A stretch of 64,000 nucleotides of DNA from an uncultured Bacteroidota bacterium (GTDB lineage Bacteria > Bacteroidota > Ignavibacteria > UBA10030 > UBA6906), in assembly GCA_963700635.1 (NCBI GenBank), contig CAVOYH010000003.1:1860014-1924013 (forward strand), given 5' to 3'. Position 1 is the stretch's first letter. Every line of letters starts with the position of its first letter. The notes beneath the pieces are model-generated. The model was not told where the DNA came from. It saw nothing but the letters and a program-made list of their open reading frames with translations, and searched no databases. The position numbers and the translations under genes are program-made. Below are positions 3,455 through 31,925 of the stretch, one piece after another.

Positions 3455-5260
3455 ATGCTCGAACCGATCAAGCAGGTGAACATACTCGATATCGCTGTCA
3501 TCGTATCCTATCTCCTCATGCTGACCGGCGTCGGCATTTATCTGACGCGGTTCAACAAAACCGTTGACGATTTTTTCAAGGGGGGAGGGAAGATACCGTG
3601 GTGGATCTCGGGCTTGTCGACGTTTGTGGCCGGTTTTTCTGCATTCATGTTCGTTGCGGCTGCAGGATACACCTATAAGAACGGTCTCGGAGCCATGGTT
3701 CTGTTTACATCGGCCGTGTGGGGCTATGGTCTGGGGTTCCTGGTGTATGCTCGCCTGTGGCGCCGCTCACGCCTCTCGTCGCCCATGGAACTTCTTACAC
3801 GCCGTTTTTCCCAGGGGACGACATACTATTACACGCTCCTGTCCATTGTCCCGGCAGTTATGGGGTTGGGGTTGAGTATCTACATCCTGTGTATTTTTGT
3901 GGCAACGGCACTCGGCATCATGTCGGTGACAGTGAACGTCGGTTTCATGCAGCTTTCGGGGCTGGAAATCTCGATGATTGTTACCGGGGTAGTCATGCTC
4001 ATCTATACGAGTGCCGGGGGTCTCTGGGCGGTGGTCATCACCGATTCTCTCCAGTTCTTCATCATTCTGATCGTGTCCCTCCTGATCTTCCCGCTCACGT
4101 TTTTTGCGCTTGGGAACTCTTCAAACATCCTCGTTGGTTTTGAACGGCTGTTTGCGGAAGCCCCGGGCGGGTATCTTACACTGGTGGATGTGTTTACCCG
4201 TCCCTGGTTCTACCTCGCCTATCTGATAAGCTCACTCATCGGGTACAATGCCGCGTGGCACATCGGCCAGCGGTACTACAGTGTGCCGACGGAGATCGAC
4301 GCACGAAAGATGGCCCTGCTCTGCGCTGGACTGAGTATGGTGCTTCCCGTGTTGTGGATCGCTCCGACGATGGCGGCCCGGATAATGGTTCCCGATATCG
4401 CCGCGCTCTGGCCGCAGCTTGCAGAACCCGCGGAAGCATCATATGTCACGCTCGCACTGACGCTGCTTCCGAACGGCCTCATCGGCCTGACCCTCTCCGC
4501 GATCCTTGCAGCGACCATGACGTCCATCGACACGCAGCTCAACTATCTGGCATCAATTCTTGTCCGTGACGTCTTTGCGAAGATGCGATCGACGCTTACG
4601 CTCAAGGACGCCAGTGAGCGGGGTCTGCTTAATGCAGGGCGGATCACCGCATTCACGCTCGGCATCCTGGCGATTATCACTGCAATCATTGTCCAGCGCT
4701 CCAAGGGTGTGTTTGATTTTGCGCTGATGTACTATTCATGGTTTGCACCATCCATGCTGACGCCTGTTATGCTGGGGTTCCTCTATCGCCGTACTCCTTC
4801 CTGGTCGGCTATTGCAGCCGCGTCGGCAGGGTTGTTCGTCGTGTTGATAACCAACGTGTTTATTGATGTACGACCGTATCAATATGAGGTGAACATTTTC
4901 GGTGGGGTCGGGGTGACCGCGCTGGTGTTCTTCCTCTCTGCATTCTTTACCGAACGGGACGTCAGGGCCGGGCAGCAGAGAAACGAACTCTTCGCCGATC
5001 TCGTCAAGCCGGCAACGGATGATCGACTTCGGTGGTCGGCAAATGCCCTGTCATCGTATCGAATCGTCGGGCTTCTGACCGCATCGATCGGCGTCACCGT
5101 GCTCGGACTCGGACTTGTCCCGACAACGCCCGTTGTCCGGACCCTGACGCTCTTGCTTGGCTCGGGGACGGCGCTTCTCGGGTGGTCGATGATGTGGTAT
5201 TTCCGCCGCCAGTCGCGTCAACAGGCGGCTTCCGGAAAACAGGAGGAGCCTCATTCATGA
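3455..5260 (+). CDS. Sodium:solute symporter (SSS) family transporter
   Basis: Many TM helices. DFFKGGGKIPWW, YTSAGGLWAVVITDSLQ, QRYYS and LLPNGLIGL...AATMTSID are SSS signatures. Confidence 0.92.
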   Translation: MLEPIKQVNILDIAVIVSYLLMLTGVGIYLTRFNKTVDDFFKGGGKIPWWISGLSTFVAGFSAFMFVAAAGYTYKNGLGAMVLFTSAVWGYGLGFLVYARLWRRSRLSSPMELLTRRFSQGTTYYYTLLSIVPAVMGLGLSIYILCIFVATALGIMSVTVNVGFMQLSGLEISMIVTGVVMLIYTSAGGLWAVVITDSLQFFIILIVSLLIFPLTFFALGNSSNILVGFERLFAEAPGGYLTLVDVFTRPWFYLAYLISSLIGYNAAWHIGQRYYSVPTEIDARKMALLCAGLSMVLPVLWIAPTMAARIMVPDIAALWPQLAEPAEASYVTLALTLLPNGLIGLTLSAILAATMTSIDTQLNYLASILVRDVFAKMRSTLTLKDASERGLLNAGRITAFTLGILAIITAIIVQRSKGVFDFALMYYSWFAPSMLTPVMLGFLYRRTPSWSAIAAASAGLFVVLITNVFIDVRPYQYEVNIFGGVGVTALVFFLSAFFTERDVRAGQQRNELFADLVKPATDDRLRWSANALSSYRIVGLLTASIGVTVLGLGLVPTTPVVRTLTLLLGSGTALLGWSMMWYFRRQSRQQAASGKQEEPHS

Positions 5261-6177
5261 AACGCCCCATACGCGTCAGCAGCGTCCAGCTGCCGACGGT
5301 GGTTCCCGGAAAGAGTTTCGCGGAGAGACAACGGAACAATCTCCGCGGTATTCTGGACTCCCTCCGGACGGCGGGGGAGCGATCCAGCGACCTCGTGCTG
5401 CTCGGTGAATATGCCAATCTACACCACCGGACCTGGTCGACCAACCGGAAGGAATATGTGCCGGACCCGATTCCGGGAAAAACGACATCCGCCATTGCTG
5501 CATCCGCACGCAGGTACCGAATGAATGTGGCCTTTCCCATGTTTGGCGTCTGGCAGGGTGTGCTCTCAAGCTACGTCGTACTCTTCGATCGGCGCGGCAC
5601 GATTATCGGCTGCTACCAGAAATCACATCCCACGGAGCACGAACAGGAACTGGGAATCCGCCCGGGTGAGGATATTCCGGTCTATCAGCTTGATTGTGCG
5701 CGTGTCGGGATCATGACCTGTATGGATATTGAATATCCCGAGGTCGCCCAGGTGCTCATGCTCCGGGGTGCGGAGCTTCTCCTGTTTCCCCATGTCCAGG
5801 CAAGCTGGGGGGAAGTGGACTGGGAGATCCGCTATCGGGCGCGGGCGGTCGATACCGGTCTGCCCGTGGTCTCCGCCTGCTATGGATACGCAGAAGGAGA
5901 GTGGATGCCCGGCAAGATGATCGGACGAAGCAGCGTTGTGGGGCGCGACGGACTCATTCTCGCGGATCTTGGACGCCACGTCGGGGTGCTGACACACGAG
6001 ATTGATCTCGGGAAGGGACGGCGGACGCTCTTCTTCTTCAATACCGTCTACGACCGGACCAATGCTGTGATTGCGTCTCGACGGCCCGAGTTGTACCATG
6101 TACTTGTTGATCCGGCCCCGAAAGAGCTGGTACGGCGCCGGCTGCGTTCCCGTCCGAAAGGAGTGCGTCATGGCTGA
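5257..6177 (+). CDS. Carbon-nitrogen hydrolase (nitrilase/amidase superfamily)
   Basis: ATGA overlap with the SSS stop and an AGGAGG RBS. Catalytic triad E (LLGEY), K (YQKSH), C (MTCMDIEYPE). Ends with RRPELY. Confidence 0.88.
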   Translation: MKRPIRVSSVQLPTVVPGKSFAERQRNNLRGILDSLRTAGERSSDLVLLGEYANLHHRTWSTNRKEYVPDPIPGKTTSAIAASARRYRMNVAFPMFGVWQGVLSSYVVLFDRRGTIIGCYQKSHPTEHEQELGIRPGEDIPVYQLDCARVGIMTCMDIEYPEVAQVLMLRGAELLLFPHVQASWGEVDWEIRYRARAVDTGLPVVSACYGYAEGEWMPGKMIGRSSVVGRDGLILADLGRHVGVLTHEIDLGKGRRTLFFFNTVYDRTNAVIASRRPELYHVLVDPAPKELVRRRLRSRPKGVRHG

Positions 6178-6964
6178 ATCTCTCCCTGTTGCAGTGATCA
6201 CCGGCGCAAGCAGGGGTCTGGGGCGGGGCATCGCCCGAAAACTTGCCGAGCAGGGCTTTTCACTCGTCATCAACTATGCGGGAAACGCAGAGGCCGCCGC
6301 TGAGACGGTTGAGGTGTGCAAGGCGCGACAATCCCATCTTGACCAGCGGTTCGTCGCCTTCCAGGCAGATATGGCGGTACAGGAGGATCGTCTTCGTCTC
6401 GTCGACCAGACTCTGAGTGGCCTCGGACGCATCGATGTTCTCGTGAACAATGCCGGTATCGGCCCGCACGTCCGTGCGGACGTCACCGAGACATCACTTG
6501 AATCGTTCCAGCACGTGCTCCAGGTCAACCTGGAAGGCCCGTTTTTCCTCACACAGGCGGTCGTCCGATACTGGCTCGAACAACGTCCCGATCCTGTCCT
6601 GCCGCATGGATTCAGCATCGTCAATATTTCCTCTGTTTCGGCCGATACCGCGTCGCTCAACAGGGGGGAGTATTGTATTTCCAAAGCCGGACTCTCAATG
6701 GTGACACAGCTCTGGGCCGTCCGCCTTGCGTCACACCGGATCCATGTCTATGAACTTCGACCCGGCATTATGGCGACAGACATGACTGCAGGTGTGAAAG
6801 AAAAGTACGACAGGATGCTCGGCGAGGGACTTGTGCCGCAGAACCGGTGGGGTCAACCGGACGATGTCGGCAGAGCAGTGGGTGCGCTCGTGCGGGGAGA
6901 CTTCGCGTACTCGACGGGAGGAGTCATCCACCTCGACGGCGGCATGCATCTCAGGAGACTCTAG
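6170..6964 (+). CDS. Short-chain dehydrogenase/reductase (3-ketoacyl-ACP reductase-like, probably a sugar oxidoreductase)
   Basis: TGASRGLG, NNAG and YCISK motifs. AAGGAG RBS before ATG 6170. Confidence 0.9.
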   Translation: MAESLPVAVITGASRGLGRGIARKLAEQGFSLVINYAGNAEAAAETVEVCKARQSHLDQRFVAFQADMAVQEDRLRLVDQTLSGLGRIDVLVNNAGIGPHVRADVTETSLESFQHVLQVNLEGPFFLTQAVVRYWLEQRPDPVLPHGFSIVNISSVSADTASLNRGEYCISKAGLSMVTQLWAVRLASHRIHVYELRPGIMATDMTAGVKEKYDRMLGEGLVPQNRWGQPDDVGRAVGALVRGDFAYSTGGVIHLDGGMHLRRL

Positions 6965-7031: not shown

Positions 7032-8405
7032 ATGATGCATATCCATACTGATCTGACACCTGCCGCACTTCAACCACAGCTACTCCGCCTGTTCGACCTC
7101 TCTGCGCGGAAACTCAGGCTCCTGCACGATTCCTGGGACCCGGCGCACGGGACGCCGGTGTTCACGGTCGCCGGACGCTATACGTCGCGGGGCTGGACCG
7201 AATGGACCCAAGGTTTCCAATTCGGATCAGGCATCCTCCAGTACGATGCCACGGACGAACCGGTGTTTCTGGAGATCGGAAGGAAGGCGACGGTCTCGCT
7301 GATGGCCACACACGTCAGTCATGTCGGTGTCCACGACCATGGCTTCAACAATATCAGCACATACGGCAATCTCCGGCGACTCATGCTGGAAGGCCGCCTT
7401 CCGATGAACGACTGGGAACGCACCTTCTATGAGCTCGCCCTCAAGGTGAGCGGAGCTGTCCAGGCGGCACGGTGGACTGACCTGGGCGGGGGGGCCGGAT
7501 ACATCTATTCGTTCAACGGTCCGCACTCCCTGTTTGCGGATACGGTTCGTTCGCTCCGGGTTCTGGCTGTCGCCCACCAGCTCGGCCACGTGCTGATGGG
7601 AGAAAAGGATAGGAAGATCTCGCTCCTGGAACGGCTCCTTGCACACGGGGCAGCAACCTCGACATACAATGTGTATTTCGGCGAGGGGCGGGACATCTAT
7701 GACATCCGGGGACGTGTCGCACACGAATCCATTTTCAATCTGAATGACGGCTCGTATCGCTGCCCGAGTTCCCAGCAGGGATATGCGCCGTTCACAACAT
7801 GGACACGCGGGCAGGCCTGGATTCTGTGCGGGTTCGCAGAACAACTTGAGTTTCTTTCGACGCTTCAGGATACGGCATTCCCGGCCGATCGTCCGAAAGA
7901 CGCCGTCCTGGAGCTTTTCGAACGAACGGCGGAAGCAGTAGCCGACTTCTACATTGAGCAAACGCCCATCGATGGCATCCCGTACTGGGATACCGGGGCA
8001 CCGGGGTTGGCCCGGATGGGGGACTACCGTGCGCAGCCTGCCGATCCGTTCAACGACTTCGAACCGGTCGACAGTTCCGCGGCGGTCATTGCAGCCCAGG
8101 GACTCCTGCGCTTCGGGGGGTATCTCCAGCAGAAAGGGTCATCGAAAGAGGGAACACGGTATTTCCAGGCGGGTCTGACGGTGGCGAAGAATCTTTTTGC
8201 TGAGCCCTATCTGTCTCTCCAGGATGATCACCAGGGGCTCCTACTCCACTCCGTGTATCATCGTCCGAACGGTTGGGACCACGTGCCGCCGGGGAGGAAG
8301 ATCCCGTGTGGCGAGGCAACCATGTGGGGGGACTATCATGCGCGTGAGCTCGCCCTGCTGCTGCTGCGGATGGGATCAGGCAAACCGTACCTGACGTTCT
8401 TCTGA
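7032..8405 (+). CDS. GH88-like unsaturated glucuronyl hydrolase family protein
   Basis: EWTQGF, HDHGF, TWTRGQAW, PYWD, DSSAAVIAA and WGDY motifs typical of GH88. Confidence 0.8.
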   Translation: MMHIHTDLTPAALQPQLLRLFDLSARKLRLLHDSWDPAHGTPVFTVAGRYTSRGWTEWTQGFQFGSGILQYDATDEPVFLEIGRKATVSLMATHVSHVGVHDHGFNNISTYGNLRRLMLEGRLPMNDWERTFYELALKVSGAVQAARWTDLGGGAGYIYSFNGPHSLFADTVRSLRVLAVAHQLGHVLMGEKDRKISLLERLLAHGAATSTYNVYFGEGRDIYDIRGRVAHESIFNLNDGSYRCPSSQQGYAPFTTWTRGQAWILCGFAEQLEFLSTLQDTAFPADRPKDAVLELFERTAEAVADFYIEQTPIDGIPYWDTGAPGLARMGDYRAQPADPFNDFEPVDSSAAVIAAQGLLRFGGYLQQKGSSKEGTRYFQAGLTVAKNLFAEPYLSLQDDHQGLLLHSVYHRPNGWDHVPPGRKIPCGEATMWGDYHARELALLLLRMGSGKPYLTFF

Positions 8406-8413: not shown

Positions 8414-9397
8414 TCAGCTATTCACGGCACGGAAGAACGCTTCGAGATTCGCCATCGGAGCCGCTGCAGGAATGTCGCATCCCGACGAGACGACGAAATT
8501 CCGATACTGTTGTGTTTCCTGAAGAAGTGATGTGGTGCGGGCCCCGACTTCGGCCGCACTGCAGCCGACGAACACTTCGGAAGGATCGAGGTTGCCACAG
8601 AGGATCACGTCGCCCGGGACCTTTGCAAGACCCGCGACGATGTCCATCGGTTTCCCGAAGTGAACGATACGCGCCCCCGCCTCCAGTGATGCCTCCAGAT
8701 GTCCAATCCGCGCCCCGCAGTTGTGCAGGATAATGCGGAAGGAATCGTCATCCAGAGCATCCACGATTCTGTGTATGTACGGGGATGAGAACGCCCTGAC
8801 CGCATTGGGAGACATGAGTCCTGCTGTGGGCTCTGCAATGATAACCCCGTCCGCTCCCTGCTCCTTGAAGGCGCGCGCGTATGCCAACAGATACGGTGTT
8901 GTTTTCTCGAGAAGAGCATGTATGACATCGGGATCGCCCGCCGTTTCGGCGAGGGACTCGCTGACGCCGAACAGGCGCCCTGCCAGCGAAAATGGACCGA
9001 TCATGCCGGCCAGGACGCCGGCATCCGGACATGCCTGCCGGAGTTGCCGGACGGTTTCGATGTAGACAGCGCTGCGTGCCGTGCCGACGCCGGGGACCGG
9101 CAGCGACTGGATCCCCGCCATGTCCGCCACCAGCCTTCCAATCACAGTGGGTACTTCCCAATCAGCAATCTGGATCGTTGCGCCGAACTCCTCCGCTTCA
9201 ACGCTGAGGTCCATTGCGGACATGACGAATGGCATCCCAAATCGCTCGCGCAGTTTCAGCTGAGCGCGGACCTGGTGTTCGGCGTTGGAGACCATGGCGC
9301 GGACCGTGGTTCTGGCAAGAGAAGCCCCGGGAAACGTCAACACCGGCATCGCGAGCCGCCGGGTGGAAGCACGTATAGTTGTGGTGAGAGCATTCAT
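8414..9397 (-). CDS. URO-D / MtaA-CmuA family methylcobamide methyltransferase (MT2-like)
   Basis: VEAEEFGA, GPFSLA, Zn-ligand LHNCG ... SSGCD, and GNLDP motifs. Confidence 0.85.
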   Translation of the reverse strand: MNALTTTIRASTRRLAMPVLTFPGASLARTTVRAMVSNAEHQVRAQLKLRERFGMPFVMSAMDLSVEAEEFGATIQIADWEVPTVIGRLVADMAGIQSLPVPGVGTARSAVYIETVRQLRQACPDAGVLAGMIGPFSLAGRLFGVSESLAETAGDPDVIHALLEKTTPYLLAYARAFKEQGADGVIIAEPTAGLMSPNAVRAFSSPYIHRIVDALDDDSFRIILHNCGARIGHLEASLEAGARIVHFGKPMDIVAGLAKVPGDVILCGNLDPSEVFVGCSAAEVGARTTSLLQETQQYRNFVVSSGCDIPAAAPMANLEAFFRAVNS

Positions 9398-9413
9398 CCT
9401 GGTGTATCCTGAC

Positions 9414-10955
9414 CTATCCGTCGGTTGATTCGCTGTCTGCCTCTGGTGCTTCTGCTGGAAAGACCATCTCTTCTACGTACGTGTCCTGGAACCCCTCAAG
9501 TTCGCCGAGAGAAACATGCGTGATCCGGCTGGCGAGTGCATCAAACGCACCAGGCGGCAGAAAGAGACCCATTTTTGCGCCGCGGAGGGCGGTGTTCCCG
9601 GTGGGTTCAATCTTGCCGACAGGGAAGGGGAGCAGGCCAATTCTCCGGGCGCTGCTGATGTTGATATAGTTTCCGAACGCGCCGGCGAGAAGGACCGTGT
9701 GTACATCTTCGCCTGGTATGCCGAACTCCCGCAGCAAAAGGTGGATTCCTGATGCCACCGCCCCTTTTGCGAGCTGAAGCTCGCGGATGTCCGTCTGGGA
9801 GATTCGGACAGGGTAGCAGAGTTCGAGCTTGTGACTCTTGTCGCTCAGCCGCCCGCTGGGTTGAATGAGGCCGAGATCCAGCGCGCCCGCCACAGCATCA
9901 ACGAGGCCGCTTCCACAGATGCCTCGTGGGGGGACATCGCCGAGCACGTGGCAGACCAGCGCGCCCTCGTGGACGTCGACCGACGCGACTGCGCCTGTCG
10001 AAGCGCGCATGCCCATATAGATCCGCGCTCCCTCGAATGCAGGCCCCGCGGCGGTGGATGCGCACAGCAGGCGTTCCCGGTTTCCAACGACGATCTCCCC
10101 GTTGGTCCCCAGATCGACAAGCACCGTGGGGAGTTCACTCTCGTGCATATGCGTCGCGAGAATGCCGGCCAGAACATCGCTTCCAACGAAACCGCCAATG
10201 TTCGGAAGAAACCGTACTGCAGGGCCTCCCGGCACCTCCCAGCCGAGCTCCGACCCGGTAAAGCTCCGACTGCCGAGCTCATGAGATTCAAACGGGACGT
10301 GCGACAACGGTGTGACGTCAATGTCGCAGAAGAGATGATGCATGACGGTGTTGCCGACGAGGATAATTTCGGCCACCGGGCGGGGCTCCGGTCCCGACGC
10401 TTCGAGGAGGGCGTCGACCATTTTGCCGATCTGCTTCCGCACGGCGGTGGCGAGTCTGGTCCGTACTGTGGGATCAGTGCCTACGCCCACGCGGCTCATG
10501 ATATCCGCTCCAAATCTGGCTTGTGCATTCAGTGCGGTGCGGACAGCCAGAACCTCCCCGTTCTGAAGGTCGAGGAGCTGTGCGACAATTGTTGTCGACC
10601 CCACGTCGATGGCGATTCCTGTTCCGGACCGGGGTGTGAACACAAAATTCGCAGTATCGGCCAGAATCTGGGCTTCCCAGTGGGCCATTTCGAGGGTGAG
10701 GTCCCCATCGGCCCGGCACTGGCAGCTCAATCGCCACCCGGCCTCGAGCTCCTCTGTGCTCAGCATCTTCTCCTGGGCGGGCGTGACCGGCAGTGACCCC
10801 TCGAGGACCCGGACACGGCACCCTTTGCACCTGCCATGGCCACCGCAGGGAAATTCCACACCGTGGGAAAAAAGGAGGTCCTGCAATCGTGCGCCTGGCG
10901 GAGCTTCGATATCCGTGCCCAATGGGCGAAGGCGTATCCTGATTGTGTCACTCAT
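9414..10955 (-). CDS. ATP-dependent corrinoid reductive activator (RACE/RamA; 2Fe-2S + ASKHA/DUF4445)
   Basis: CGGHGRCKGC...RLSCQ ferredoxin. DVGSTT, GGFVGSD, DLGTNGE, STAAGPAFEG, GICGSG and LAGAFG motifs. Confidence 0.92.
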   Translation of the reverse strand: MSDTIRIRLRPLGTDIEAPPGARLQDLLFSHGVEFPCGGHGRCKGCRVRVLEGSLPVTPAQEKMLSTEELEAGWRLSCQCRADGDLTLEMAHWEAQILADTANFVFTPRSGTGIAIDVGSTTIVAQLLDLQNGEVLAVRTALNAQARFGADIMSRVGVGTDPTVRTRLATAVRKQIGKMVDALLEASGPEPRPVAEIILVGNTVMHHLFCDIDVTPLSHVPFESHELGSRSFTGSELGWEVPGGPAVRFLPNIGGFVGSDVLAGILATHMHESELPTVLVDLGTNGEIVVGNRERLLCASTAAGPAFEGARIYMGMRASTGAVASVDVHEGALVCHVLGDVPPRGICGSGLVDAVAGALDLGLIQPSGRLSDKSHKLELCYPVRISQTDIRELQLAKGAVASGIHLLLREFGIPGEDVHTVLLAGAFGNYINISSARRIGLLPFPVGKIEPTGNTALRGAKMGLFLPPGAFDALASRITHVSLGELEGFQDTYVEEMVFPAEAPEADSESTDG

Positions 10956-11701
10956 GGCGTATTGGGTTGTGCGGCAATGATGCGATCATCGTATGTGCTT
11001 ACGACGGTGTGGCCCGGAGGAACAACCAGAAAGTCCTCATCGTCCCACGGCCCATTGACCAGACGTTCCAGGAGACTCAGACTGCCCGGTATGGCATCGA
11101 ATGACCACCCATGTTCGGCGGCCCGCTCCCGCGCAACCTGTTCGAACTGGTTGCCTGGTTCAACCCCCATCCCGATGTAGGTGATCTGTTTGTAGTGCTT
11201 CGTCTGATCGCAGAGCGTGTCGTAGAGGTAGCGTGCGTTTTCTTCGCCGTATTTTTCTACGAGCTGTTCGAAGGTCATATCCATACTGTTCTTGTTCTGG
11301 ATGGAGAGCTGGCGGAGTTCTCCGCTCGGGTCTCCCCGTTCGATCCAGCCGGATGTCAGGAAATACGTGCCGGGGTTATCCTGGAAGTACTGCAGGTACC
11401 GTTTGCGGCTTCCCATGAAGAGGGTCATGCAGTCGTGGCCGCGGGGGATTACAAGGGGGAGGGTCCGTGTGCGGAGGCCGGCGATACCGTTGTTGCACAG
11501 GGCATATCCCAGGAGGAGCGCATCATATCCCGGGGTGTCGGCGGCATCGACGGCCACCTGGAGCCGTTCGACCATGCCGGCGGACCCGATGTCGTGCAGA
11601 CCCTTCGGGAGAAATGCAAAATCCACCTGGTGAGGCGAACGGGCGATAAGGGAGCAAAGTTCGCGGTAGAGGACTTCGCAGGATACGAGCTTCAGCTTCA
11701 T
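10952..11701 (-). CDS. DUF1638 domain protein
   Basis: SCEVL, LPKGLH, LLGYALC, HDCMTLFMGS, PGTYFLTSGW and GSLSLLERLVNGPW segments. Typical position next to a RACE gene. Confidence 0.82.
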   Translation of the reverse strand: MKLKLVSCEVLYRELCSLIARSPHQVDFAFLPKGLHDIGSAGMVERLQVAVDAADTPGYDALLLGYALCNNGIAGLRTRTLPLVIPRGHDCMTLFMGSRKRYLQYFQDNPGTYFLTSGWIERGDPSGELRQLSIQNKNSMDMTFEQLVEKYGEENARYLYDTLCDQTKHYKQITYIGMGVEPGNQFEQVARERAAEHGWSFDAIPGSLSLLERLVNGPWDDEDFLVVPPGHTVVSTYDDRIIAAQPNTP

Positions 11702-12567
11702 CCGATCGTTCGGATCAATGCTGAAACAAACTCAGGAGAGGTGCCACAACAGCCGCCCACAAAGGCGACTCCGGCTTGCCGTAATCCTCCGGCCAACGTC
11801 GCAAACTCGTCGGCAGTCGTCCGGTACACGATCTCCCCGTTGACCAGCTCGGGCAGGCCGGCGTTGGGTTTGATCCAGACAGGGAGTGATGTTGCTGCGC
11901 GAAGGCGGCGGGCGATGGGGATGTAGCCCTCCATGCCGAGGCCACAATTGGCGCCGATGACATCAGCGCCTGCTTCTGCCAGGGCTTCTGCGACCTGCTC
12001 CGGAGTGGAACCCATCATGGTCCGGTCCTTCTCTTTGCCCGAATCAAAGACCATGGAAGCGACAACGGGAAGTCCCGTACTCCGCGCGGCTGCGACGGCA
12101 AGCAGGGCCTCCCCGAGGTCCGACATTGTTTCGACCACCAGCGCGTCAGGACCGGCGGAGGCGAGGGCGGCGGCTTGTTCGGTGAAAGCCGTCGTCAGGT
12201 CTTCCTCCGTGACATCGCCGCTCATCAGCATCTTTCCGCTCGGACCGATGGATGCGAAGACCATGGCGTTTGTACCGGCAGCAGCGCGGGAAAGCCTGAC
12301 GCCGGAGGCATTGAGGTCCACAACCCTGTCCGCCAGACCGTGCCCGATGAGAGCAATCCGATTACTGCGGAACGTGTTTGTGAGAATGACCCGGCTGCCG
12401 GCATTGACATACCGCCGGGCAACCTCTGTGACCAGGTCAGGATGAGTCAGGTTCCAGCCGTCCGGACATTCGCCCGGGGGAAGGCCGAGGGCCTGGAGCT
12501 GAGTCCCCCATGCGCCATCAGTGATGACGGGAGTCGTTGTGAGAAGACGCTGAAGAGTTGGATGCAT
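11698..12567 (-). CDS. Stand-alone homocysteine S-methyltransferase (MetH N-terminal domain-like)
   Basis: DGAWGTQL, TNTF, GANCG, PNAGLP and GGCCGT Zn-binding motifs. Confidence 0.93.
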   Translation of the reverse strand: MHPTLQRLLTTTPVITDGAWGTQLQALGLPPGECPDGWNLTHPDLVTEVARRYVNAGSRVILTNTFRSNRIALIGHGLADRVVDLNASGVRLSRAAAGTNAMVFASIGPSGKMLMSGDVTEEDLTTAFTEQAAALASAGPDALVVETMSDLGEALLAVAAARSTGLPVVASMVFDSGKEKDRTMMGSTPEQVAEALAEAGADVIGANCGLGMEGYIPIARRLRAATSLPVWIKPNAGLPELVNGEIVYRTTADEFATLAGGLRQAGVAFVGGCCGTSPEFVSALIRTIG

Positions 12568-12582
12568 TGTGCCCCGATTTAT

Positions 12583-13218
12583 CTAGCCGGCGACCAGTTT
12601 TCGTGCGAGGGCAACGGCTCCGTTCGCATTCGTGCTGTAGCCGTCCGCGCCGATCTCTTCGGCGTATTTCTCTGTCACGGGCGCCCCCCCGATCATGATC
12701 TTCACGCGCGGGCGGACGCCGGCGGCCTTCACCGCTTCAATCGTCGTCTTCATCGAGTTCATGGTGGTTGTGAGAAGGGCCGACATGGCCATGAGGCCCG
12801 CTTGCTTCTCATTCAGCGCAGCGATGAACTTCTCCGGCGAGACATCCACGCCGAGATCAATCACTTCAAAGCCCGCGCCTTCCAGCATTGCCCCCACAAG
12901 GTTTTTCCCGATGTCGTGGAGATCGCCTTTCACCGTGCCGATGACGACACGACCGGCCGGCTGGGCTCCACTGGCGGTCAAAAGGGGTCGAATGAGTTCG
13001 AGCGAGGCCTTCATTGCCCGGGCCGAGATCAGGAGTTCCGGCACAAAGTATTCATTTGCTTCGTAGCGGCGCCCGACTTCATCCATGGCGGGAATCATGT
13101 GCTCCTGGACCATGACCTGAGGGTCCATGCCCGCTGCAAGCGCCTGCTGTGTGATTTCCCTGGCGGACTTGAAATTCCCGGTCAGGATCGCATCATACAG
13201 TTTCTTGAGTTCTTCCAT
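12583..13218 (-). CDS. Corrinoid (B12-binding) protein
   Basis: Four-helix cap (YFVPELLISARAM) plus GDLHDIGKNLV, DLGVDV, SALLTTT and IGGAP. Confidence 0.96.
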   Translation of the reverse strand: MEELKKLYDAILTGNFKSAREITQQALAAGMDPQVMVQEHMIPAMDEVGRRYEANEYFVPELLISARAMKASLELIRPLLTASGAQPAGRVVIGTVKGDLHDIGKNLVGAMLEGAGFEVIDLGVDVSPEKFIAALNEKQAGLMAMSALLTTTMNSMKTTIEAVKAAGVRPRVKIMIGGAPVTEKYAEEIGADGYSTNANGAVALARKLVAG

Positions 13219-13253
13219 TGATTGTCTCTCCTCTCAGAGGTAGTACAGGGTTG

Positions 13254-14303
13254 TTATTGCCGTCCATTTTCGTAAATCGTGTCATAGAGCGCAAGAATAT
13301 TCGCCGTCGGTGTTACAGGCTGCAGGTTATGGCAAGGCGCGCAGATCCACCGTGCGCCGGAGAAGATACGGATATTATCCAGTACTTCCGACCGGACTTC
13401 CTCCGGCGATCCGAACGGGAGCGTGTACTGATTGTCGACCGCTCCATGGAAGATGACTTTTTCGCCGAAATCGCGGACGAGCCCTTCCCGTTCCATTCCC
13501 GGGCATCGCCACTGGATGGGATTGAGGAGCTCAATTCCAGTGGTGTTGATAAGGTCGGGGATGATCTCGCGGGCGGCGCCATCCGTGTGATAGAAGATGT
13601 GAATGCCGTAGCGCCGCGCGAGGTCCGCCATCTTCTTCTGGCGTGGGAGAATGAACTTGCGGATCTCGGGAACCCCGAACAGCAGGGCGGTCTGACCGCC
13701 GAGGTCTTCGGCGACGTAGGTGACGTCGATACGCCCTTTCCCGATGTCGAAGGCCTTCTCATTGACAGTGTAGTGATACCGGAAAATGTACTCCAGGGCC
13801 GTGTCCACAAATTCCTGGTCGACGAGGAGATCCATCATTGCGAGCTCCATACCCCGGAGAGCGCAATACAGGAGGAACGGCTCGAATTCTCCCGAACGTA
13901 CAGCCCGGTGTGCCGGAGCAGCGGCAATATCGGACCGGAACCGGTCAAAATCGTGGTCGGCAGGGTCCGGCCATGCGTACGCATGCAGCTCATCCACTGA
14001 TGTCATCTCGGCAAAAGGATGATTTGCGAACTCATCGTACACACCCTCTCCATAATCAATCGATGTGCGCCGGAGGCCCCAGATATCCGCTTCGGGATCG
14101 CCAGGGTGGTGGTCGACCGTCCGTACAGGATTGATGTGCACGAGCCCATCGATGTGGAGGCGCGTGTACAACGTTTCCTTGTCGGCACACTGCAACTCCC
14201 GCAACAGGCGGGCCGTTACTTCGTCCGTTGCCCAGTAGTCAGTGGGAATACGATCAGATTTCTTGCCTGTAAACAGGGCCAGCCAGCGTTCCCGAGGAGT
14301 CAT
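13254..14303 (-). CDS. URO-D family protein (putative methyltransferase)
   Basis: MTPRER start, EDLGGQ, YHTDG, NPIQW, FHGAVDNQ and APCHNLQ motifs. Confidence 0.85.
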   Translation of the reverse strand: MTPRERWLALFTGKKSDRIPTDYWATDEVTARLLRELQCADKETLYTRLHIDGLVHINPVRTVDHHPGDPEADIWGLRRTSIDYGEGVYDEFANHPFAEMTSVDELHAYAWPDPADHDFDRFRSDIAAAPAHRAVRSGEFEPFLLYCALRGMELAMMDLLVDQEFVDTALEYIFRYHYTVNEKAFDIGKGRIDVTYVAEDLGGQTALLFGVPEIRKFILPRQKKMADLARRYGIHIFYHTDGAAREIIPDLINTTGIELLNPIQWRCPGMEREGLVRDFGEKVIFHGAVDNQYTLPFGSPEEVRSEVLDNIRIFSGARWICAPCHNLQPVTPTANILALYDTIYENGRQ

Positions 14304-14310
14304 GAAAAGT

Positions 14311-14339
14311 AAAATGCACCATTATTGTGAGAGAATCAA
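14311..14339 (-). promoter_or_regulatory. Putative sigma70 promoter of the corrinoid operon (apparently leaderless)
   Basis: Minus strand TTGATT-17 bp-CATTTT, 7 nt before ATG 14303. No SD sequence. Confidence 0.5.
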
Positions 14340-14361
14340 CACTTTTTCAGGGGCATTTCAT

Positions 14362-14390
14362 TTGTAAATCGGCGTTTCATTTGCTATTTT
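14362..14390 (+). promoter_or_regulatory. Putative sigma70 promoter of the divergent URO-D gene (apparently leaderless)
   Basis: TTGTAA-17 bp-TATTTT with an extended -10 TG, 6 nt before ATG 14397. No SD sequence. Confidence 0.55.
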
Positions 14391-14396
14391 TCGTCT

Positions 14397-15527
14397 ATGA
14401 TTACGCCCCGAGAGCGCGTCCTGGCTGCAATGAACGGAGGGATTCCGGACAAAGTGCCGTTTATGTGCCAGCTCAGCATCGGCCATATGCTGCTCGCGCT
14501 CGATGAGTCGCCTGCGGGGTTCTGGCACGATCCGGACACGTACGCCGAAGGCCTTGTCCGTTTGCGCGCACTGTACGGTTTTGACGGTATCCTGGTGAGC
14601 CTTCATGGCCATGATCCGGACTGGCGCACGCGGGTGAAAAAGTTCTGGATTACAGAGGAGGGGGAAGAGGTGCTCTGGGCCAACGGCGATCGCACCATCT
14701 ACCCCCTGAATGAGCTCCCCCGACACCAGCCCGCGCAGGACCCCGCCGCCCCGTTGCTGGAAGAGTACCCGCTGGACACTCTTCCCGATCGACTTGACTA
14801 CATCCCCGTTTCCCGGGGACTCCACTTTGCCCTCCACCTCGACCACCTATTCGACGTGTTCCAGGACCTCCGGGTCAGGACAGATGGCCGGTACTCGATT
14901 CACGGCGAAGTGACCTCTCCGCTCGACTACTACCTCGATATTTTCGGCATCGACGCCGGACTCATGGGGATGATTGACGATCCGGAAAAAGTCGAGCAGA
15001 TACTGCTGCATTTTGCCAGGCTTGTGGGGGACCTGGCAGGGCGAATGTGCGGAACGGGTGTTGACGCGATCAAAGTCTCCTCGCCCTTCGCCGGGGCAGG
15101 ATTCCTGTCGCAGGACTTCTATCGCCGGTTCGTTCTCCCGGCTGAAACCGTGGTTGTGAGCGCCATCCGCTCTCACGGTGTCCACGCCTATCTCCACACT
15201 TGCGGCGCGATCGGCGACAGGCTGGAGCTGATGTTTGCTTCCGGGGCGTCGGGGATCGAATGTCTGGATCCGCCTCCTCTCGGCAATGTGGAACTCCGGG
15301 AGGCGAAGACGCGTACCCGGCATCTCGGCTTCATCAAAGGCAATCTCGATTCGGTCAATACTCTCCTCAATGGATCGCCTGAGCACATTGTCGCTGATGC
15401 GCAGGAACGCCTTGCCATTGGCAGGGAAGGGGGAGGATTTATCCTGAGTACCGCGTGTTCGGTTGCACCGGGCGTGAAACCGGAGAGCCTTCTTCTTGTC
15501 CGGGACGTTGTGGAACGGTGCGGATAG
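14397..15527 (+). CDS. URO-D / MtaA family protein (putative methyltransferase)
   Basis: TPRERVLAA..G..PDKVP start, LHTCG, KGNLD and GGFILSTACS motifs. Confidence 0.85.
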   Translation: MITPRERVLAAMNGGIPDKVPFMCQLSIGHMLLALDESPAGFWHDPDTYAEGLVRLRALYGFDGILVSLHGHDPDWRTRVKKFWITEEGEEVLWANGDRTIYPLNELPRHQPAQDPAAPLLEEYPLDTLPDRLDYIPVSRGLHFALHLDHLFDVFQDLRVRTDGRYSIHGEVTSPLDYYLDIFGIDAGLMGMIDDPEKVEQILLHFARLVGDLAGRMCGTGVDAIKVSSPFAGAGFLSQDFYRRFVLPAETVVVSAIRSHGVHAYLHTCGAIGDRLELMFASGASGIECLDPPPLGNVELREAKTRTRHLGFIKGNLDSVNTLLNGSPEHIVADAQERLAIGREGGGFILSTACSVAPGVKPESLLLVRDVVERCG

Positions 15528-15564
15528 CTCCGCGATGGAGTTCGCACGTGAAAGGATTCTCTGT

Positions 15565-17997
15565 ATGTCGACGACGACACTGTGGAAGACTGCTCTGGCA
15601 TGTGTCTGTGCAACAACACTCATGCGGGGAGGGACATTGACGTCTTCGCGCAACGAACAGCCGGGCTTCCTTTCCGTCCCCCAACTCACCAGAGCCGGCA
15701 TCGTCTGCACGAATAGCTTTGGCTCTGCGCTGTACAGGCTCGACGGGTCAACAGTTGTGGAGATCGCTTCCGGGCCTGGCGTGGGTCTCTATTATACCAT
15801 CTCCCCTGATGGGGCACGGGTTGGTTTCAAACGAATTACGGATGAGGGCCTTCAGGTGCCGTCGATCCTCGACCCGGCGACGGGGAAGAGCGAATCGCTC
15901 ACCGCACCCGTACGGCAGGCAGGGCAGGTCAGCTTTACGGATGACGGGAGGATGGCGTTCACAATCGGGTCCGAGATGGTCGTCACCGACGGAGTCATCG
16001 AACACCGCTATGACCTCGGCCTCTACGCAAACATCGCTCCGATATCTCCCGACGGTTCGATCGTGGCGTACAACGATGCCGACGACCAGATATGGGTTCT
16101 TTCATTGCAGTCGGGGAAGCGTGAAAAGATCAGCGTTCCCGGGCGGGGGTATTTTTCGCCCCTCTGGTCCCCTGACGGGGCCCGCCTTGTGTTCCGCGGA
16201 CTCTCAGGGACCATGCATGTGTACGACCGGACGCCGGGAAACGTCATTGACATAGGGCAAGGCGACCATCCGGCCTGGATGTCTGACTCCCGTTCGCTGC
16301 TCTTCTATCGAACGACAATCGAGAACGGCCGGCTTGTGGAATCTGATCTTTTCACCATCAGGGCGGATGGGACAGAAGAACGGCAGCTGACCAGAACGGC
16401 TGGTATTCTTGAGATGGATCCCGCTCCGGCGGGGGATGGTACGTCCATTCTGTGTCAGACGCATGCCCTGAACCAGCTGCTGACGGTGCCCATGGCCACG
16501 GGACCGTCGCTTGCAAAGGCCGCTCCTTCGGTTCTTGCAAACGGAAAGGGGCTTTCCATCGTGCCGCGGTTTCCTCCGGCAGTTCAGCAGCCGGACGTGA
16601 TTCTCGATATCCCCTATGTTCATCAGGTCTATGACACACCGGACTGGTTTAATGGCCACTGGGCATGTGCCCCAACCCAGGCCATCATGCTCCTGGCATA
16701 CTACAATGTGCTTCCCCCCTGGACCATCGTCTGCAGCTGGCCGAGCCGCCATCCAACGTCCTGGGGAAACTACGTCGCCGATCGGTATCGATTTCGTCAG
16801 GTAGAATACAGCTTTCTTGCGGACGACCCAAACCAAAGCCCGGCCATGGGGGGATACGGTTACATGTGGACAGGGACATCGAGCCCGCACTCCCGTATGG
16901 CAAGCTACTTCAGGAACCATGGACTCACAGCGACCCAGACCGAATCGACACCGTATAGCACGGCGGCCGCGGAAGTCGGCGGCGGGTATCCCTTCAGCAT
17001 GTGCGTGATGCTCACGGATGCCGGGCATCTGGTCCTCGCGCACGGGTTCGGCGCTGAGCCGCACACGTTTGTGTTCAATGATCCGTACGGGAACAAGAAC
17101 CTGGGGTACATGAACACCGCAGGGAAGAACGTCCTGTACGATTGGCCGGGTTTCAATAACGGGTATCAAAACCTGACCGGAGTAGCCTGGTGCATTGCGA
17201 CACGGTCAGTTGCTCCGGCGGTGTCTGATTCCATCGTTGATGATCTCCAGTTCGGGAACGGGTTCACTCTCGCCACAGCTTCGCCGGCGTCCATGGGGAG
17301 GTGGCGGGATCTGACACGGGGATACCAGGGGCATCTCTGGTACACATACACGCAGACCGGTGTGGCCGACACGTGCTTTGCAGAATGGCGGCCCGCCCTG
17401 CAGGCAGCGGGTGCCTACGCGGTCGATGCCTTCATCCCGCTCAGCAATGCCACGCACGCGGTCTACCGGATCGTGCACGCCGAAGGATCGGATACCGTCG
17501 TCATCGATCAGAGCCCGTACCGCGAGGCCTGGGTCCCTCTGGGCATCTACTCCTTCGATGCCGGGAATTCCGGTCATGTGTACCTCGGAGACGCGTCCAC
17601 CGTCGCCGGGCAGGAAATCGTCTTTGATGCACTCCGGTGGAGCCGGGTGGTGACGGCTATGAGCGGGGACATGGTGTCGTTCACCCCGGCTCGATGGGTC
17701 TTACACCAGAATTATCCGAATCCGTTCAATCCGGGCACGACCATACTCTACACGGTCGGCCGAACGGACGAAAGGGCCGGTACGGAGCGTGGCGGGAGAA
17801 GTGTGGGGGATGGTGTGGTACGGCTTGGGGTGTATGATGTGCTGGGAAGGGAGGTGGCGGTGCTGGTCGACGGCGTGGTCTCTCCCGGTGAGCACAGCGT
17901 CGTGTTCGACGCAGGTGGTCTCGCCGGTGGTGTGTACTTCTACAGGCTTCAGACGCCGGCGGGGAGCCTCGTCCGCACCATGCTTTTCGCGAAATAA
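15565..17997 (+). CDS. Secreted TolB/PD40 propeller + C39-like cysteine peptidase + golvesin-like domain + T9SS CTD
   Basis: AAGGA RBS and signal-like N-terminus. SPDG/WSPDG repeats. PYVHQ..ACAPT (Cys), GHLV (His), NDPYG. AEWRP...WVPLG.Y.F...DALRW golvesin-like segment. QNYPNPFNP...GVYFYRL CTD. Confidence 0.75.
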   Translation: MSTTTLWKTALACVCATTLMRGGTLTSSRNEQPGFLSVPQLTRAGIVCTNSFGSALYRLDGSTVVEIASGPGVGLYYTISPDGARVGFKRITDEGLQVPSILDPATGKSESLTAPVRQAGQVSFTDDGRMAFTIGSEMVVTDGVIEHRYDLGLYANIAPISPDGSIVAYNDADDQIWVLSLQSGKREKISVPGRGYFSPLWSPDGARLVFRGLSGTMHVYDRTPGNVIDIGQGDHPAWMSDSRSLLFYRTTIENGRLVESDLFTIRADGTEERQLTRTAGILEMDPAPAGDGTSILCQTHALNQLLTVPMATGPSLAKAAPSVLANGKGLSIVPRFPPAVQQPDVILDIPYVHQVYDTPDWFNGHWACAPTQAIMLLAYYNVLPPWTIVCSWPSRHPTSWGNYVADRYRFRQVEYSFLADDPNQSPAMGGYGYMWTGTSSPHSRMASYFRNHGLTATQTESTPYSTAAAEVGGGYPFSMCVMLTDAGHLVLAHGFGAEPHTFVFNDPYGNKNLGYMNTAGKNVLYDWPGFNNGYQNLTGVAWCIATRSVAPAVSDSIVDDLQFGNGFTLATASPASMGRWRDLTRGYQGHLWYTYTQTGVADTCFAEWRPALQAAGAYAVDAFIPLSNATHAVYRIVHAEGSDTVVIDQSPYREAWVPLGIYSFDAGNSGHVYLGDASTVAGQEIVFDALRWSRVVTAMSGDMVSFTPARWVLHQNYPNPFNPGTTILYTVGRTDERAGTERGGRSVGDGVVRLGVYDVLGREVAVLVDGVVSPGEHSVVFDAGGLAGGVYFYRLQTPAGSLVRTMLFAK

Positions 17998-18024: not shown

Positions 18025-18849
18025 TCAGGCCTGGTAGAGAACAGGGTTGAGCACGCTGGCTGCGGCTTCGCCGGGGCGCTGCCCGGGGAAGAATGCCTCC
18101 ATGTCGACTAGCCGATATTTGTTGTCCGGTTCCATGATCTGAGCGCCGTCTTCATAGTAGATGACAGTCATCACTTCGCGGACCAGGGATGAAGCATTGG
18201 GATGCGCTGCATGGGCCGTCCATCCGGCATGGAACGTCGCGTCCCCCGCTTTCAGATCATAGCTCGCGATCGGAAAACCACGCTCGCGCACGAGTTCGTC
18301 GAAATACCGGTCCGAAGCCTCCGAGATTGCGACATCGCCGAGTTGTCCGTGCAAATGCGATCCCCCGGCGAAGAGCATCGTTCCCATGTCGCGGGTCAAA
18401 TCAATCAACGGCATCCACATCGTGATGGTCCGCGGAGTTGCCAGTGGCCAGTAGAGCTGATCCTGGTGCCATGGAGTGCCCTTCCCCTGGGGAGGTTTGA
18501 AGAGCGCCTGGTCATGATAGAGCCGCACCGATCGAACTCCCATCAATCCGGCGGCGGTGCGGGCAAACCGCTTCCCGATGACGAACCGCAGTGCGGCATC
18601 GTGCAGACGCCAGACGTTCGTGACCTGAACGAAGAGGCTGCTGTAGTCTTCGCCCCCTTCCCGCGGCTTCTTCTTGGGCGCCCGGTTCGCAAGTGTCTGT
18701 GCAATGAATGGCCGGTATGCACGGATCTCCTCCTGTGAAGCGAGGCCTCGCAGGAGAACGTGGCCGTCGGCCTGATACTGTGTGACATCCCTGTCGTTCA
18801 GAGGATACGTGTCATTCAGTGCCGGCAAGGAACCGAAGGTTTCTGCCAT
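18025..18849 (-). CDS. Phytanoyl-CoA dioxygenase (PhyH) family Fe/2OG oxygenase
   Basis: DQALFKPP, TPWHQD and AGDATFH..WTAH motifs. Confidence 0.9.
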   Translation of the reverse strand: MAETFGSLPALNDTYPLNDRDVTQYQADGHVLLRGLASQEEIRAYRPFIAQTLANRAPKKKPREGGEDYSSLFVQVTNVWRLHDAALRFVIGKRFARTAAGLMGVRSVRLYHDQALFKPPQGKGTPWHQDQLYWPLATPRTITMWMPLIDLTRDMGTMLFAGGSHLHGQLGDVAISEASDRYFDELVRERGFPIASYDLKAGDATFHAGWTAHAAHPNASSLVREVMTVIYYEDGAQIMEPDNKYRLVDMEAFFPGQRPGEAAASVLNPVLYQA

Positions 18850-19741: not shown

Positions 19742-19845
19742 GCCCACTCCGGGGAGCGCAACATTTGCCCATCGGCATCGTACTCATGTGTGAAGACCGG
19801 GATTTACCGGCGACGGTATCAGTCCTATCTGCAAGGACAACAGCC

Positions 19846-20619: not shown

Positions 20620-20623
20620 CTCG

Positions 20624-20699
20624 CCATTCCGCATTTCGTCGTACCATTACGCATCTCATCGCACCACCCTTTGCATCCCGGCCGGAATTGGGGTACTAT
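20624..20699 (+). promoter_or_regulatory. Direct-repeat (LytTR-type) site plus sigma70 promoter of the sensor kinase
   Basis: CCATTCCGCATTTCGTCGTA / CCATTACGCATCTCATCGCA (16/20 identical, 20-bp period), then TTGCAT-17 bp-TACTAT. Confidence 0.65.
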
Positions 20700-20746
20700 T
20701 CTCGCATGGTACAGCATTTCGCATATTGGACAGGGAGATCGTCCTG

Positions 20747-24570: not shown

Positions 24571-24580
24571 ACCGGGCGGA

Positions 24581-24615: not shown

Positions 24616-24634
24616 CTGAGGGTCCTGCCCGGGT

Positions 24635-28665: not shown

Positions 28666-28685
28666 TCGCGAAGGAACTGCTCACG

Positions 28686-31905: not shown

Positions 31906-31925
31906 TGTCAGAAGGAAAACACGAA

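Follow-up and report, generated by a model that had tools for sequence, protein, structure and literature searches.

What is an operon for corrinoid-dependent methyl transfer doing among genes for glycan breakdown, and from where to where might it move methyl groups? The question arises from a 64,000-nucleotide (nt) stretch of DNA, here called the window, from an uncultured Bacteroidota bacterium (GenBank assembly GCA_963700635.1, contig CAVOYH010000003.1, positions 1,860,014 to 1,924,013 of the forward strand). Six closely packed minus-strand genes at 8414-14303 of the window encode two proteins of the uroporphyrinogen decarboxylase (URO-D) family, a corrinoid protein, a homocysteine S-methyltransferase, a DUF1638 protein and a reductive activase. 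As all parts of a corrinoid relay are present and a folate module is not, we consider it an even call that this operon is an accessory, folate-independent relay in a glycan-catabolic locus, one that would carry methyl groups from an O-methylated sugar to homocysteine.

The operon and its URO-D proteins

From its 5' end the operon runs uroD_B-CoP-HcyMT-DUF1638-RACE-uroD_A, with spacings of 35, 15, -4, -4 and 16 nt, and such short or overlapping gaps make a single operon likely. A third URO-D gene, uroD_C (14397-15527, plus strand; 376 amino acids (aa); Pfam URO-D, E = 3.9e-28), is transcribed divergently across a 93-nt spacer. A preliminary description of this DNA had listed these genes, and we recovered each open reading frame (ORF) in its place and, with Pfam, every domain that had been named. 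The same description had claimed that the cluster lacks pterin-binding and methionine synthase (MetH) activation domains, and Pfam indeed found neither Pterin_bind (PF00809) nor Met_synt_B12 (PF02965) in the seven proteins. All NCBIfam matches of the seven fell below the curated cut-offs, so that no named enzyme has a recognised equivalog among them. At the Rfam gathering threshold the window contained no riboswitch and matched only two tRNAs; scans for promoters and terminators did no better than shuffled controls (4 versus 2.5 and 6 versus 6.4, respectively), and a search of sequencing runs returned no matching RNA run, the best DNA run having 0.15 of the sampled words.

The methyl carrier is proposed to be the stand-alone corrinoid protein (CoP; 12583-13218, minus strand, as throughout the operon; 211 aa), which combines a B12-binding cap (Pfam B12-binding_2, 1.2e-23) with a B12-binding domain (B12-binding, 1.9e-31). 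Its D99-x-H101-x-x-G104 motif (DxHxxG) was invariant in 24 of 24 aligned sequences, and its best NCBIfam match was MtgC_2 (216 bits against a cut-off of 370). The next gene encodes a stand-alone homocysteine S-methyltransferase (HcyMT; 11698-12567; 289 aa; Pfam S-methyl_trans, 5.9e-65), which we propose acts as a methyl-corrinoid:homocysteine methyltransferase yielding methionine. Its best match in the Protein Data Bank (PDB) was the homocysteine domain of Thermotoga maritima MetH (1q7m; 282 residues aligned, E = 2.9e-48), and comparison with that structure revealed that the three zinc cysteines are intact, one in GANCG and two in GGCCG.

The RACE/RamA-type ATP-dependent reductive activase (RACE; 9414-10955; 513 aa; Pfam Fer2, 2.4e-10, Raco_middle, 5.6e-45, and RACo_C_ter, 8.7e-66) carries an N-terminal 2Fe-2S domain and had AcsV as its best NCBIfam match (299.8 bits; cut-off 800). 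The DUF1638 protein (10952-11701; 249 aa; Pfam DUF1638, 4.3e-37), the gene of which overlaps each neighbour by 4 nt, has a modelled two-lobed alpha/beta fold (pLDDT 87.6). The best fold matches were LacI/periplasmic-binding protein (PBP)-type domains (Z 9.0), with Asp/Glu racemases at Z 7.8; as these share only a generic two-lobed alpha/beta architecture, no function can be derived from them. Residues C8, C69, H89, D90 and C91 were invariant in 18 of 18 sequences, and the protein is probably an accessory to corrinoid reactivation, by analogy with the bacterial systems that follow.

Price 2018 (PMC5764234) reports that methionine synthesis by the split MetH of Phaeobacter inhibens requires four proteins: one of PF02574, one that binds the corrinoid, one that is RamA-like and one with DUF1638, the last with its function given as unknown. 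In Ruegeria pomeroyi a betaine methyltransferase shares this corrinoid protein (Mausz 2025, PMC12478193). In Phaeobacter and Ruegeria, MtgE, a stand-alone homocysteine enzyme, takes the methyl group from the corrinoid protein MtgC, which is also loaded by the substrate methyltransferase MtgB and served by RamA and DUF1638. The parallel to a split MetH maintained by RamA and DUF1638 had been drawn in the preliminary description and is borne out here, all four components being present in the window operon. It is on this genetic precedent that the acceptor half of the proposed relay, from CoP to HcyMT, would rest. For the donor half, we infer a role for uroD_B from genomic context and site residues.

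The preliminary description had the URO-D-fold enzymes together as possible loaders of the corrinoid, a view that their predicted active sites do not support, as only uroD_B looks like a donor enzyme. This divergent URO-D-fold protein (13254-14303; 349 aa; Pfam URO-D, 8.5e-14) had no match among PDB sequences at E <= 0.01. Its AlphaFold2 model (pLDDT 95.0, pTM 0.90) had as its best Foldseek match MtaA, a methylcobalamin:coenzyme M methyltransferase (4ay7; E = 4.2e-13, query TM-score 0.71), with uroporphyrinogen decarboxylase structures close behind by a small margin (0.64-0.70). Residues H239, D241, C267, C321, C324 and H325 were invariant in all 38 sequences aligned. His239-x-Asp241 lines up with the His-x-Cys of uroD_A and uroD_C in an alignment of the three paralogs, giving uroD_B a predicted His/Asp/Cys zinc site made up of His239, Asp241 and Cys324. 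According to a 2023 preprint by Kountz and Balskus (PMC10418091), URO-D-type S-methyltransferases have His-Cys-Cys sites and O-methyltransferases have Asp/Glu or non-ligands in place of Cys; by that rule, uroD_B would be of the O type and uroD_A and uroD_C of the S (thiol) type. The rule has exceptions, as CdmB and the Moorella O-demethylase lack zinc.

In a FastTree phylogeny of 96 URO-D proteins, uroD_B belongs to a clade of 38 sequences with a support of 100 and a long stem; this tree and the 40-sequence IQ-TREE used below are quick methods without bootstraps. Being the first gene of the operon and in a separate clade, with MtaA as its nearest fold and an invariant His/Asp/Cys site, uroD_B is proposed to be the donor-side methyltransferase (MT I), which would load the corrinoid protein with a methyl group taken from an O-methylated substrate.

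The last gene of the operon encodes the MtaA-like uroD_A (8414-9397; 327 aa; Pfam URO-D, 2.2e-51), which matched uroporphyrinogen decarboxylases and MtaA (4ay7, 2.1e-12) in the PDB, and the H225, C227 and C307 of its His/Cys/Cys site were invariant in 32 of 32 sequences. The site of uroD_C is also His/Cys/Cys: its sole PDB match was MtaA 4ay7 (6.5e-10), with the His-x-Cys and the distal Cys aligned. Orthologs of uroD_A and of uroD_C form separate clades of their own in the FastTree phylogeny, the latter comprising the window protein and six others (support 100). Scores against the mtaA_cmuA model TIGR01463 (cut-off 235.4 bits) were 125.9 bits for uroD_A, 92.1 for uroD_C and 30.7 for uroD_B, and against the HemE model TIGR01464 (cut-off 302.95 bits) uroD_A scored 61.3 bits, with no match listed for the other two.

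Related loci and the rest of the genome

Among 8000 candidates scored, 3985 proteins matched uroD_B at E <= 1e-10. With the window's own protein set aside, 119 of the 120 matches listed remain, at 65-83% identity to it, and those that bear a name are called only 'uroporphyrinogen decarboxylase (family)'. Relatives of uroD_B are encoded on 376 stretches of species-representative genomes, 80 of which were kept as the set of loci counted below, with every ORF classed by phmmer against the window proteins together with Pfam-verified neighbours. These loci come from metagenome-assembled genomes (MAGs) labelled Bacteroidota/Ignavibacteriota, Planctomycetota, Verrucomicrobiota, Lentisphaerae and Anaerolineales.

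The full six-gene order was found in 14 of the 80 loci and twice in this genome, and such recurrence indicates that the arrangement is not due to chance. Seven loci had a partial or variant operon (L019 and L024 being cut by contig ends), with variants such as uroD_B-CoP-RACE-uroD_A (L034) and MtaB-uroD_B-CoP-DUF1638-RACE (L045). Another 11 were rhamnose-linked, 32 had short flanks and no partner, and 16 with at least 6 kb on both sides had no partner gene downstream of uroD_B. By component, a CoP ortholog (at ortholog-level score) followed uroD_B in 21 loci, HcyMT orthologs were present in 18 and uroD_A orthologs in 16; none of the annotated neighbours in related loci was a pterin-binding protein. 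Since uroD_A ends the operon, stays with HcyMT beside a different URO-D protein and is the sole acceptor-side candidate in L034, it is probably a general second methyltransferase rather than a donor-specific one.

The uroD_B clade is patchy, occurring at E <= 1e-100 in 5 of 301 genomes sampled from the phylum of the window and in 11 of 301 from that of a Planctomycetota carrier, the starting genome being counted in each case. All five Planctomycetota genomes with a 'lone' uroD_B that were searched carry a RACE gene (compared with 1 of 14 controls) and have matches to the B12-binding cap, some of them in open frames of 157-266 aa. Of the three Planctomycetota RACE regions examined, two had a small corrinoid protein no more than about 1 kb away from RACE, and one of these two also had DUF1638, a URO-D gene and HcyMT nearby. 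Neighbours of uroD_B in Planctomycetota included GH28, a GH123-like gene and 3-keto-disaccharide hydrolases, among others, and in a Lentisphaerae locus uroD_B-CoP was near GH38. A Verrucomicrobiia locus (L078) encodes CoP, MtaB, a sulfatase, HcyMT and the uroD_B ortholog, along with seven further ORFs that match Pfam URO-D at E <= 1e-5, a count that leaves out the ortholog itself. MtaB occurs with uroD_B-CoP in 2 of the 80 loci: it directly adjoins the pair in L045 and shares an array with it in L078.

The link to rhamnose is provided by the 11 loci that have rhamnulokinase, rhamnose isomerase or GH78 genes at most 6 kb from uroD_B. The four fully resolved loci of this type (L036, L039, L042 and L046) run from a uroD_C ortholog through an Fe-S protein, rhamnulokinase, L-rhamnose isomerase (PF06134, about 1e-190), uroD_B, GH78 alpha-L-rhamnosidase and an amino-acid permease to RACE, such that uroD_C orthologs head the locus and uroD_B sits directly between rhaA and the GH78 gene. 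In 10 of the 80 loci the permease gene (AA_permease_2, for example L042:13866-15224) separates the GH78 gene from RACE; a role in methionine or homocysteine transport would be pure conjecture. In the IQ-TREE analysis, the gene in the window falls in an unresolved Bacteroidota/Ignavibacteriota clade (support 96) of five lineages, one of which is made up of the rhamnose-linked copies (support 99).

All five rhamnose-type genomes searched had an HcyMT ortholog elsewhere (56-60% identity), and in the three cases examined (L112:8203-13939, L113:4996-16385 and L114:2042-6876) it adjoined GH38, an alpha-mannosidase-like gene. L112 and L113 continue with GH3, a further URO-D gene and a relative of uroD_A. 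Close uroD_A relatives adjoin HcyMT in GH38/GH3 arrays, and the arrays may be further methyl-sugar modules sharing the acceptor enzyme.

The window's own genome (4.2 Mb in 6 contigs; 97% complete, 6.7% contamination) was searched for other methionine synthases and pterin-binding proteins, and gave five PF00809, six PF02574 and two PF01717 matches. Two canonical MetH, at C6:126353-129882 and C3:1688848-1692376 (contigs are given as C3, C4 and C6), are each encoded as two adjacent ORFs, the first with the homocysteine and pterin domains and the second with the B12 cap, B12 and S-adenosylmethionine (SAM)-dependent activation domains; the pterin match is interrupted in the C3 copy. There are also two short core-MetE-like genes, a fused homocysteine methyltransferase/methylenetetrahydrofolate reductase (MTHFR), one further lone PF02574 gene and a FolP-like gene. 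The abstract of PMC7005905 describes a core-MetE that takes its methyl group from methylcobalamin. A second, folate-type corrinoid operon (C4:923925-928195) encodes a URO-D protein, a 290-aa pterin-binding protein, a small MetF partner (DUF5981), MTHFR and a corrinoid protein. The five PF00809 matches are accounted for by the two MetH genes, the FolP-like gene and this other operon.

The folate subunit of methionine synthase has therefore not been replaced in this organism, contrary to the preliminary description. The two MetH, the core-MetE-like genes and the folate-type operon rule out the window operon as the sole methionine synthase, and given the canonical MetH and the folate-type operon it is best seen as an accessory, additional system. 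With two MetH and two core-MetE-like genes in the genome, the operon is unlikely to be essential for methionine prototrophy.

The genome contains a second copy of the whole locus at C4:36363-54604, in which 13 genes keep the same order without uroD_C: heparinase-like, 940-aa protein, sodium:solute symporter (SSF), CN-hydrolase, SDR, GH88-like, the six-gene operon and an 833-aa neighbour. Seven proteins compared directly between the two copies were 66-91% identical, the other six being paralogs identified by phmmer. A mixed assembly was considered and rejected, given the 6.7% contamination and contigs of 1.0 and 1.9 Mb; as both copies lie on megabase contigs we read them as paralogs, which may serve related but different glycans. 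Counting all ORFs of the genome, 25 reach E <= 1e-5 against uroD_A, uroD_B or uroD_C. An MtaB homolog at C3:83141-84592 (PF12176, 530 bits) has no corrinoid protein adjoining it and is near GH97, heparinase II/III-like and catalase genes; lacking a corrinoid protein of its own, it may feed methanol to the same CoP.

A proposed methyl relay and its alternatives

From these data, we infer the following catalytic steps. uroD_B would take the methyl group of an O-methylated compound freed in glycan breakdown and hand it to the corrinoid protein in its Co(I) state, our best guess for the donor being an O-methyl deoxy-hexose such as 3-O-methyl-L-rhamnose. HcyMT would transfer the methyl group from CH3-Co(III) to homocysteine, giving methionine and restoring Co(I), and RACE together with DUF1638 would re-reduce, at the expense of ATP, corrinoid that had been oxidised to Co(II). 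uroD_A would most likely move the methyl group to another thiol, or take one from a methylthio compound, and uroD_C would be a further accessory enzyme of the uroD_A type. O-methylated sugars are found in glycans of mosses, ferns, algae and bacteria, and 3-O-methylrhamnose is among the sugars described from moss and fern arabinogalactan proteins. The O-methyl sugars suggested in the preliminary description fit the glycan and rhamnose context. Its broader idea, a route from a non-folate donor to homocysteine, probably stands for an accessory system and falls as a replacement for methionine synthase.

On the acceptor side, the system would resemble MtgBCDE and the split MetH, and on the donor side the anaerobic O-demethylases, without the folate pterin module of either. 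With the former it shares a stand-alone PF02574 enzyme with zinc cysteines, a corrinoid protein (PF02607 plus PF02310, with DxHxxG) and RamA/RACE plus DUF1638 in place of a SAM-dependent activation domain (PF02965 being absent here), and, in our proposal, the use of one corrinoid protein for both substrate demethylation and methionine synthesis. It differs in having no equivalent of the pterin-binding MtgD in the window operon and in its proposed donor enzyme, which has a URO-D fold, whereas MtgB is of the MttB family. Here all parts lie in one operon within a glycan locus, the host keeps canonical MetH, and hosts are uncultured bacteria of Bacteroidota/Ignavibacteriota type rather than aerobic Alphaproteobacteria.

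Like the window operon, as judged by fold and gene adjacency, the corrinoid systems by which anaerobes carry out O-demethylation and dehalogenation with three or four components (Odm, Vdm, Mtv, Mto and CdmBCA) combine an MT I of the URO-D superfamily, a corrinoid protein and an ATP-dependent activase, and L034 has exactly their layout of MT I, corrinoid protein, activating enzyme and second methyltransferase (MT II). In those systems, however, the methyl group goes to tetrahydrofolate (THF), or to tetrahydromethanopterin in archaea, whereas here there is a homocysteine methyltransferase; a folate MT II is missing from the operon, in which the acceptor-side candidates are HcyMT and uroD_A, and the context is one of glycans and rhamnose, not acetogenesis. 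MtaB/MtaC/MtaA systems also pair an MtaA-like URO-D protein with a corrinoid protein built from this type of domain, but the window has no MtaB and no coenzyme M context, and homocysteine would be the acceptor.

Several observations weigh against a relay from methyl sugars to homocysteine. No rhaA or GH78 gene adjoins the operon in the window's own locus, so that the rhamnose link comes from orthologs elsewhere, and the 16 well-flanked loci without a partner indicate that linkage of uroD_B to the other genes is not obligate. To our knowledge, cleavage of an alkyl methyl ether by a URO-D fold is unprecedented. MtaB shows that Co(I), assisted by zinc, can cleave an aliphatic C-O bond. The zinc-ligand rule by which uroD_B is assigned to the O type stems from one preprint and is not universal. 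Methionine is a poor stoichiometric sink for catabolic methyl flux, so it would probably receive a minor stream or a second enzyme would be needed; the presence of two candidate acceptor-side enzymes, HcyMT and uroD_A, is not fully explained by the relay. Cross-talk with methyl-THF is also possible through the folate-type operon and the two MetH.

Of the alternatives, a lignin-type O-demethylase survives best, although we regard it as unlikely. Here uroD_B would demethylate methoxylated aromatics, as OdmB, VdmB, MtvB and MtoB do, and the methyl group would go to homocysteine, not THF. A His/Asp/Cys site suits any O-methyl donor. Many of the related MAG records are named for fen, peat, soil or lake sediment, habitats that are rich in methoxy-aromatics. 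The characterised O-demethylases of the URO-D superfamily in the literature covered all act on phenolic methyl ethers, and known URO-D-type MT I enzymes use aryl methyl ethers or chloromethane as substrates (PMC10418091). Yet the annotated neighbourhoods contain no aromatic-catabolism gene, the neighbours being rhaA, rhaB, GH78, GH3, GH38, GH28 and the GH88-like gene, and uroD_B has no PDB or NCBIfam sequence match to a characterised O-demethylase.

The operon might instead be a split methionine synthase running on methyl-THF, with a URO-D protein, most plausibly uroD_A, loading the corrinoid in place of the pterin module of MtgD or MetH. The six genes would take the six functional places of MtgB, MtgC, MtgD, MtgE, RamA and DUF1638; uroD_A moves with HcyMT across contexts, as a general module would, and L034 requires it as the sole acceptor-side enzyme. 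Kountz and Balskus leave a UroD-type H4folate methyltransferase possible while calling it 'undiscovered' (PMC10418091), and no URO-D-fold folate methyltransferase is known. Together with the invariant His/Cys/Cys of uroD_A, which points to thiol or selenol chemistry, and the two complete MetH, beside which a third, duplicated in glycan loci, is hard to motivate, this makes the methyl-THF route quite improbable. The Eubacterium limosum MtqA and a Desulfitobacterium MT II were considered as URO-D-fold folate precedents and dropped, as the sources consulted do not state their fold and Kountz and Balskus treat such an enzyme as undiscovered.

Still less convincing, and in our view decidedly improbable, is a salvage of methylthio or methylseleno compounds, in which uroD_A and uroD_C would demethylate such compounds onto the corrinoid and the methyl group would pass to methionine. 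It would draw on the type 1 mlp clusters (PMC10418091), which like the window have several MtaA-like His/Cys/Cys URO-D paralogs, a corrinoid protein, RACE and no folate methyltransferase, on the recycling of methyl groups into methionine proposed by the authors of that study, and on the S-type sites of uroD_A and uroD_C. However, neither the window locus nor the annotated related loci contain a sulfur, selenium or methionine-salvage gene, such as accompany mlp clusters, and the gene that leads the operon, the conserved uroD_B, encodes an O-type site and lies among glycan genes. The mlp clusters are mostly from Firmicutes (73% of the genera that have them), and their description includes no PF02574 or DUF1638, its main text naming DUF1638 0 times and homocysteine once. 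Finally, methanol from pectin de-esterification could feed CoP and HcyMT through an MtaB encoded elsewhere, leaving uroD_B a minor or non-methyltransferase role, as the MtaB homolog beside GH97 and heparinase-like genes and the MtaB of L045 and L078 would allow, but this is very unlikely given that the window and 78 of the 80 loci lack MtaB, and that uroD_B stays first in the operon and is highly conserved among the 119 other proteins listed (65-83% identity).

The surrounding locus and wider meaning

The relay from methyl sugars to homocysteine would be one part of a larger locus. The window begins within a heparinase II/III-like gene (2-1009, plus strand; Pfam Hepar_II_III_C, 1.6e-9; full ORF C3:1858668-1861022), followed on the same strand by a 940-aa protein (612-3434) with no Pfam, NCBIfam or PDB match, for which Atlas neighbours carrying Bac_rhamnosid6H, MGH1-like_GH or GDE_C offer the lead of a possible six-hairpin glycosidase. 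A sodium:solute symporter (3455-5260, plus strand; Pfam SSF, 1.4e-32; 10 of 80 loci) is next, then a CN-hydrolase of the nitrilase/amidase superfamily (5032-6177, plus; CN_hydrolase, 2.5e-33, residues 81-330; 7 of 80 loci), the true start of which is probably further downstream as its ORF overlaps the transporter gene. An SDR oxidoreductase with an uncertain start codon (6071-6964, plus; adh_short_C2, 8e-48; 12 of 80 loci) precedes a gene convergent with the operon (7032-8405, plus; 13 of 80 loci) that encodes a distant GH88-like unsaturated glucuronyl hydrolase. The latter had no Pfam match at 0.001, but matched PDB 1vd5 (1.3e-8) and had Atlas neighbours named GH88 or unsaturated glucuronyl hydrolase.

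On the other side lies a large Golvesin_C protein (15496-17997, plus), also with PD40 and Peptidase_C39_2; 8 of the 80 loci as well as the C4 copy have it beside the operon, and another Golvesin_C protein is at 38875-41922 (minus). A PhyH-family Fe(II)/2-oxoglutarate dioxygenase (18025-18849, minus), found upstream of uroD_B in 4 of 80 loci, could provide an oxygen-dependent route for the same substrate. After the locus, 19420-32960 encodes a sensing and uptake set with two LytTR response regulators, a Reg_prop/Y_Y_Y histidine kinase, a TonB-dependent receptor with CarboxypepD_reg, a 1052-aa familyless protein and a PorV-like protein. Standing apart from other sugar genes, an FGGY kinase (47847-49349, plus) matches the rhamnulokinase from rhamnose-type loci with 474 bits and has a paralog at C4:83836-85326; the rhaA of this genome is at C4:668697-670121.

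We found no literature on corrinoid-dependent demethylation of methyl sugars or on a URO-D/homocysteine methyltransferase operon, nor a description of the anaerobic removal of ether methyl groups from sugars, in a search that did not cover subscription journals. Taken more broadly, anaerobes of the FCB and PVC groups that degrade glycans would use O2-free Co(I) demethylation to strip methyl sugars, methyl-rhamnose here and others through URO-D paralogs, and pass the methyl group to homocysteine, an extension that we hold tentatively and at somewhat less than even chance. If true, an unnamed and widespread clade of the 'uroporphyrinogen decarboxylase family', encoded on 376 genome stretches, would gain a function, and corrinoid methyltransferase chemistry would reach a new substrate class, the alkyl methyl ethers. 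The logic of marine Rhodobacterales, in which one corrinoid protein serves many donors with homocysteine as the acceptor, would extend to unrelated anaerobes. Methylated plant, moss and algal glycans would then supply methionine and SAM pools without folate, a new entry to the methyl cycle, and glycan breakdown in peat, soil and sediment would be tied directly to methionine supply.

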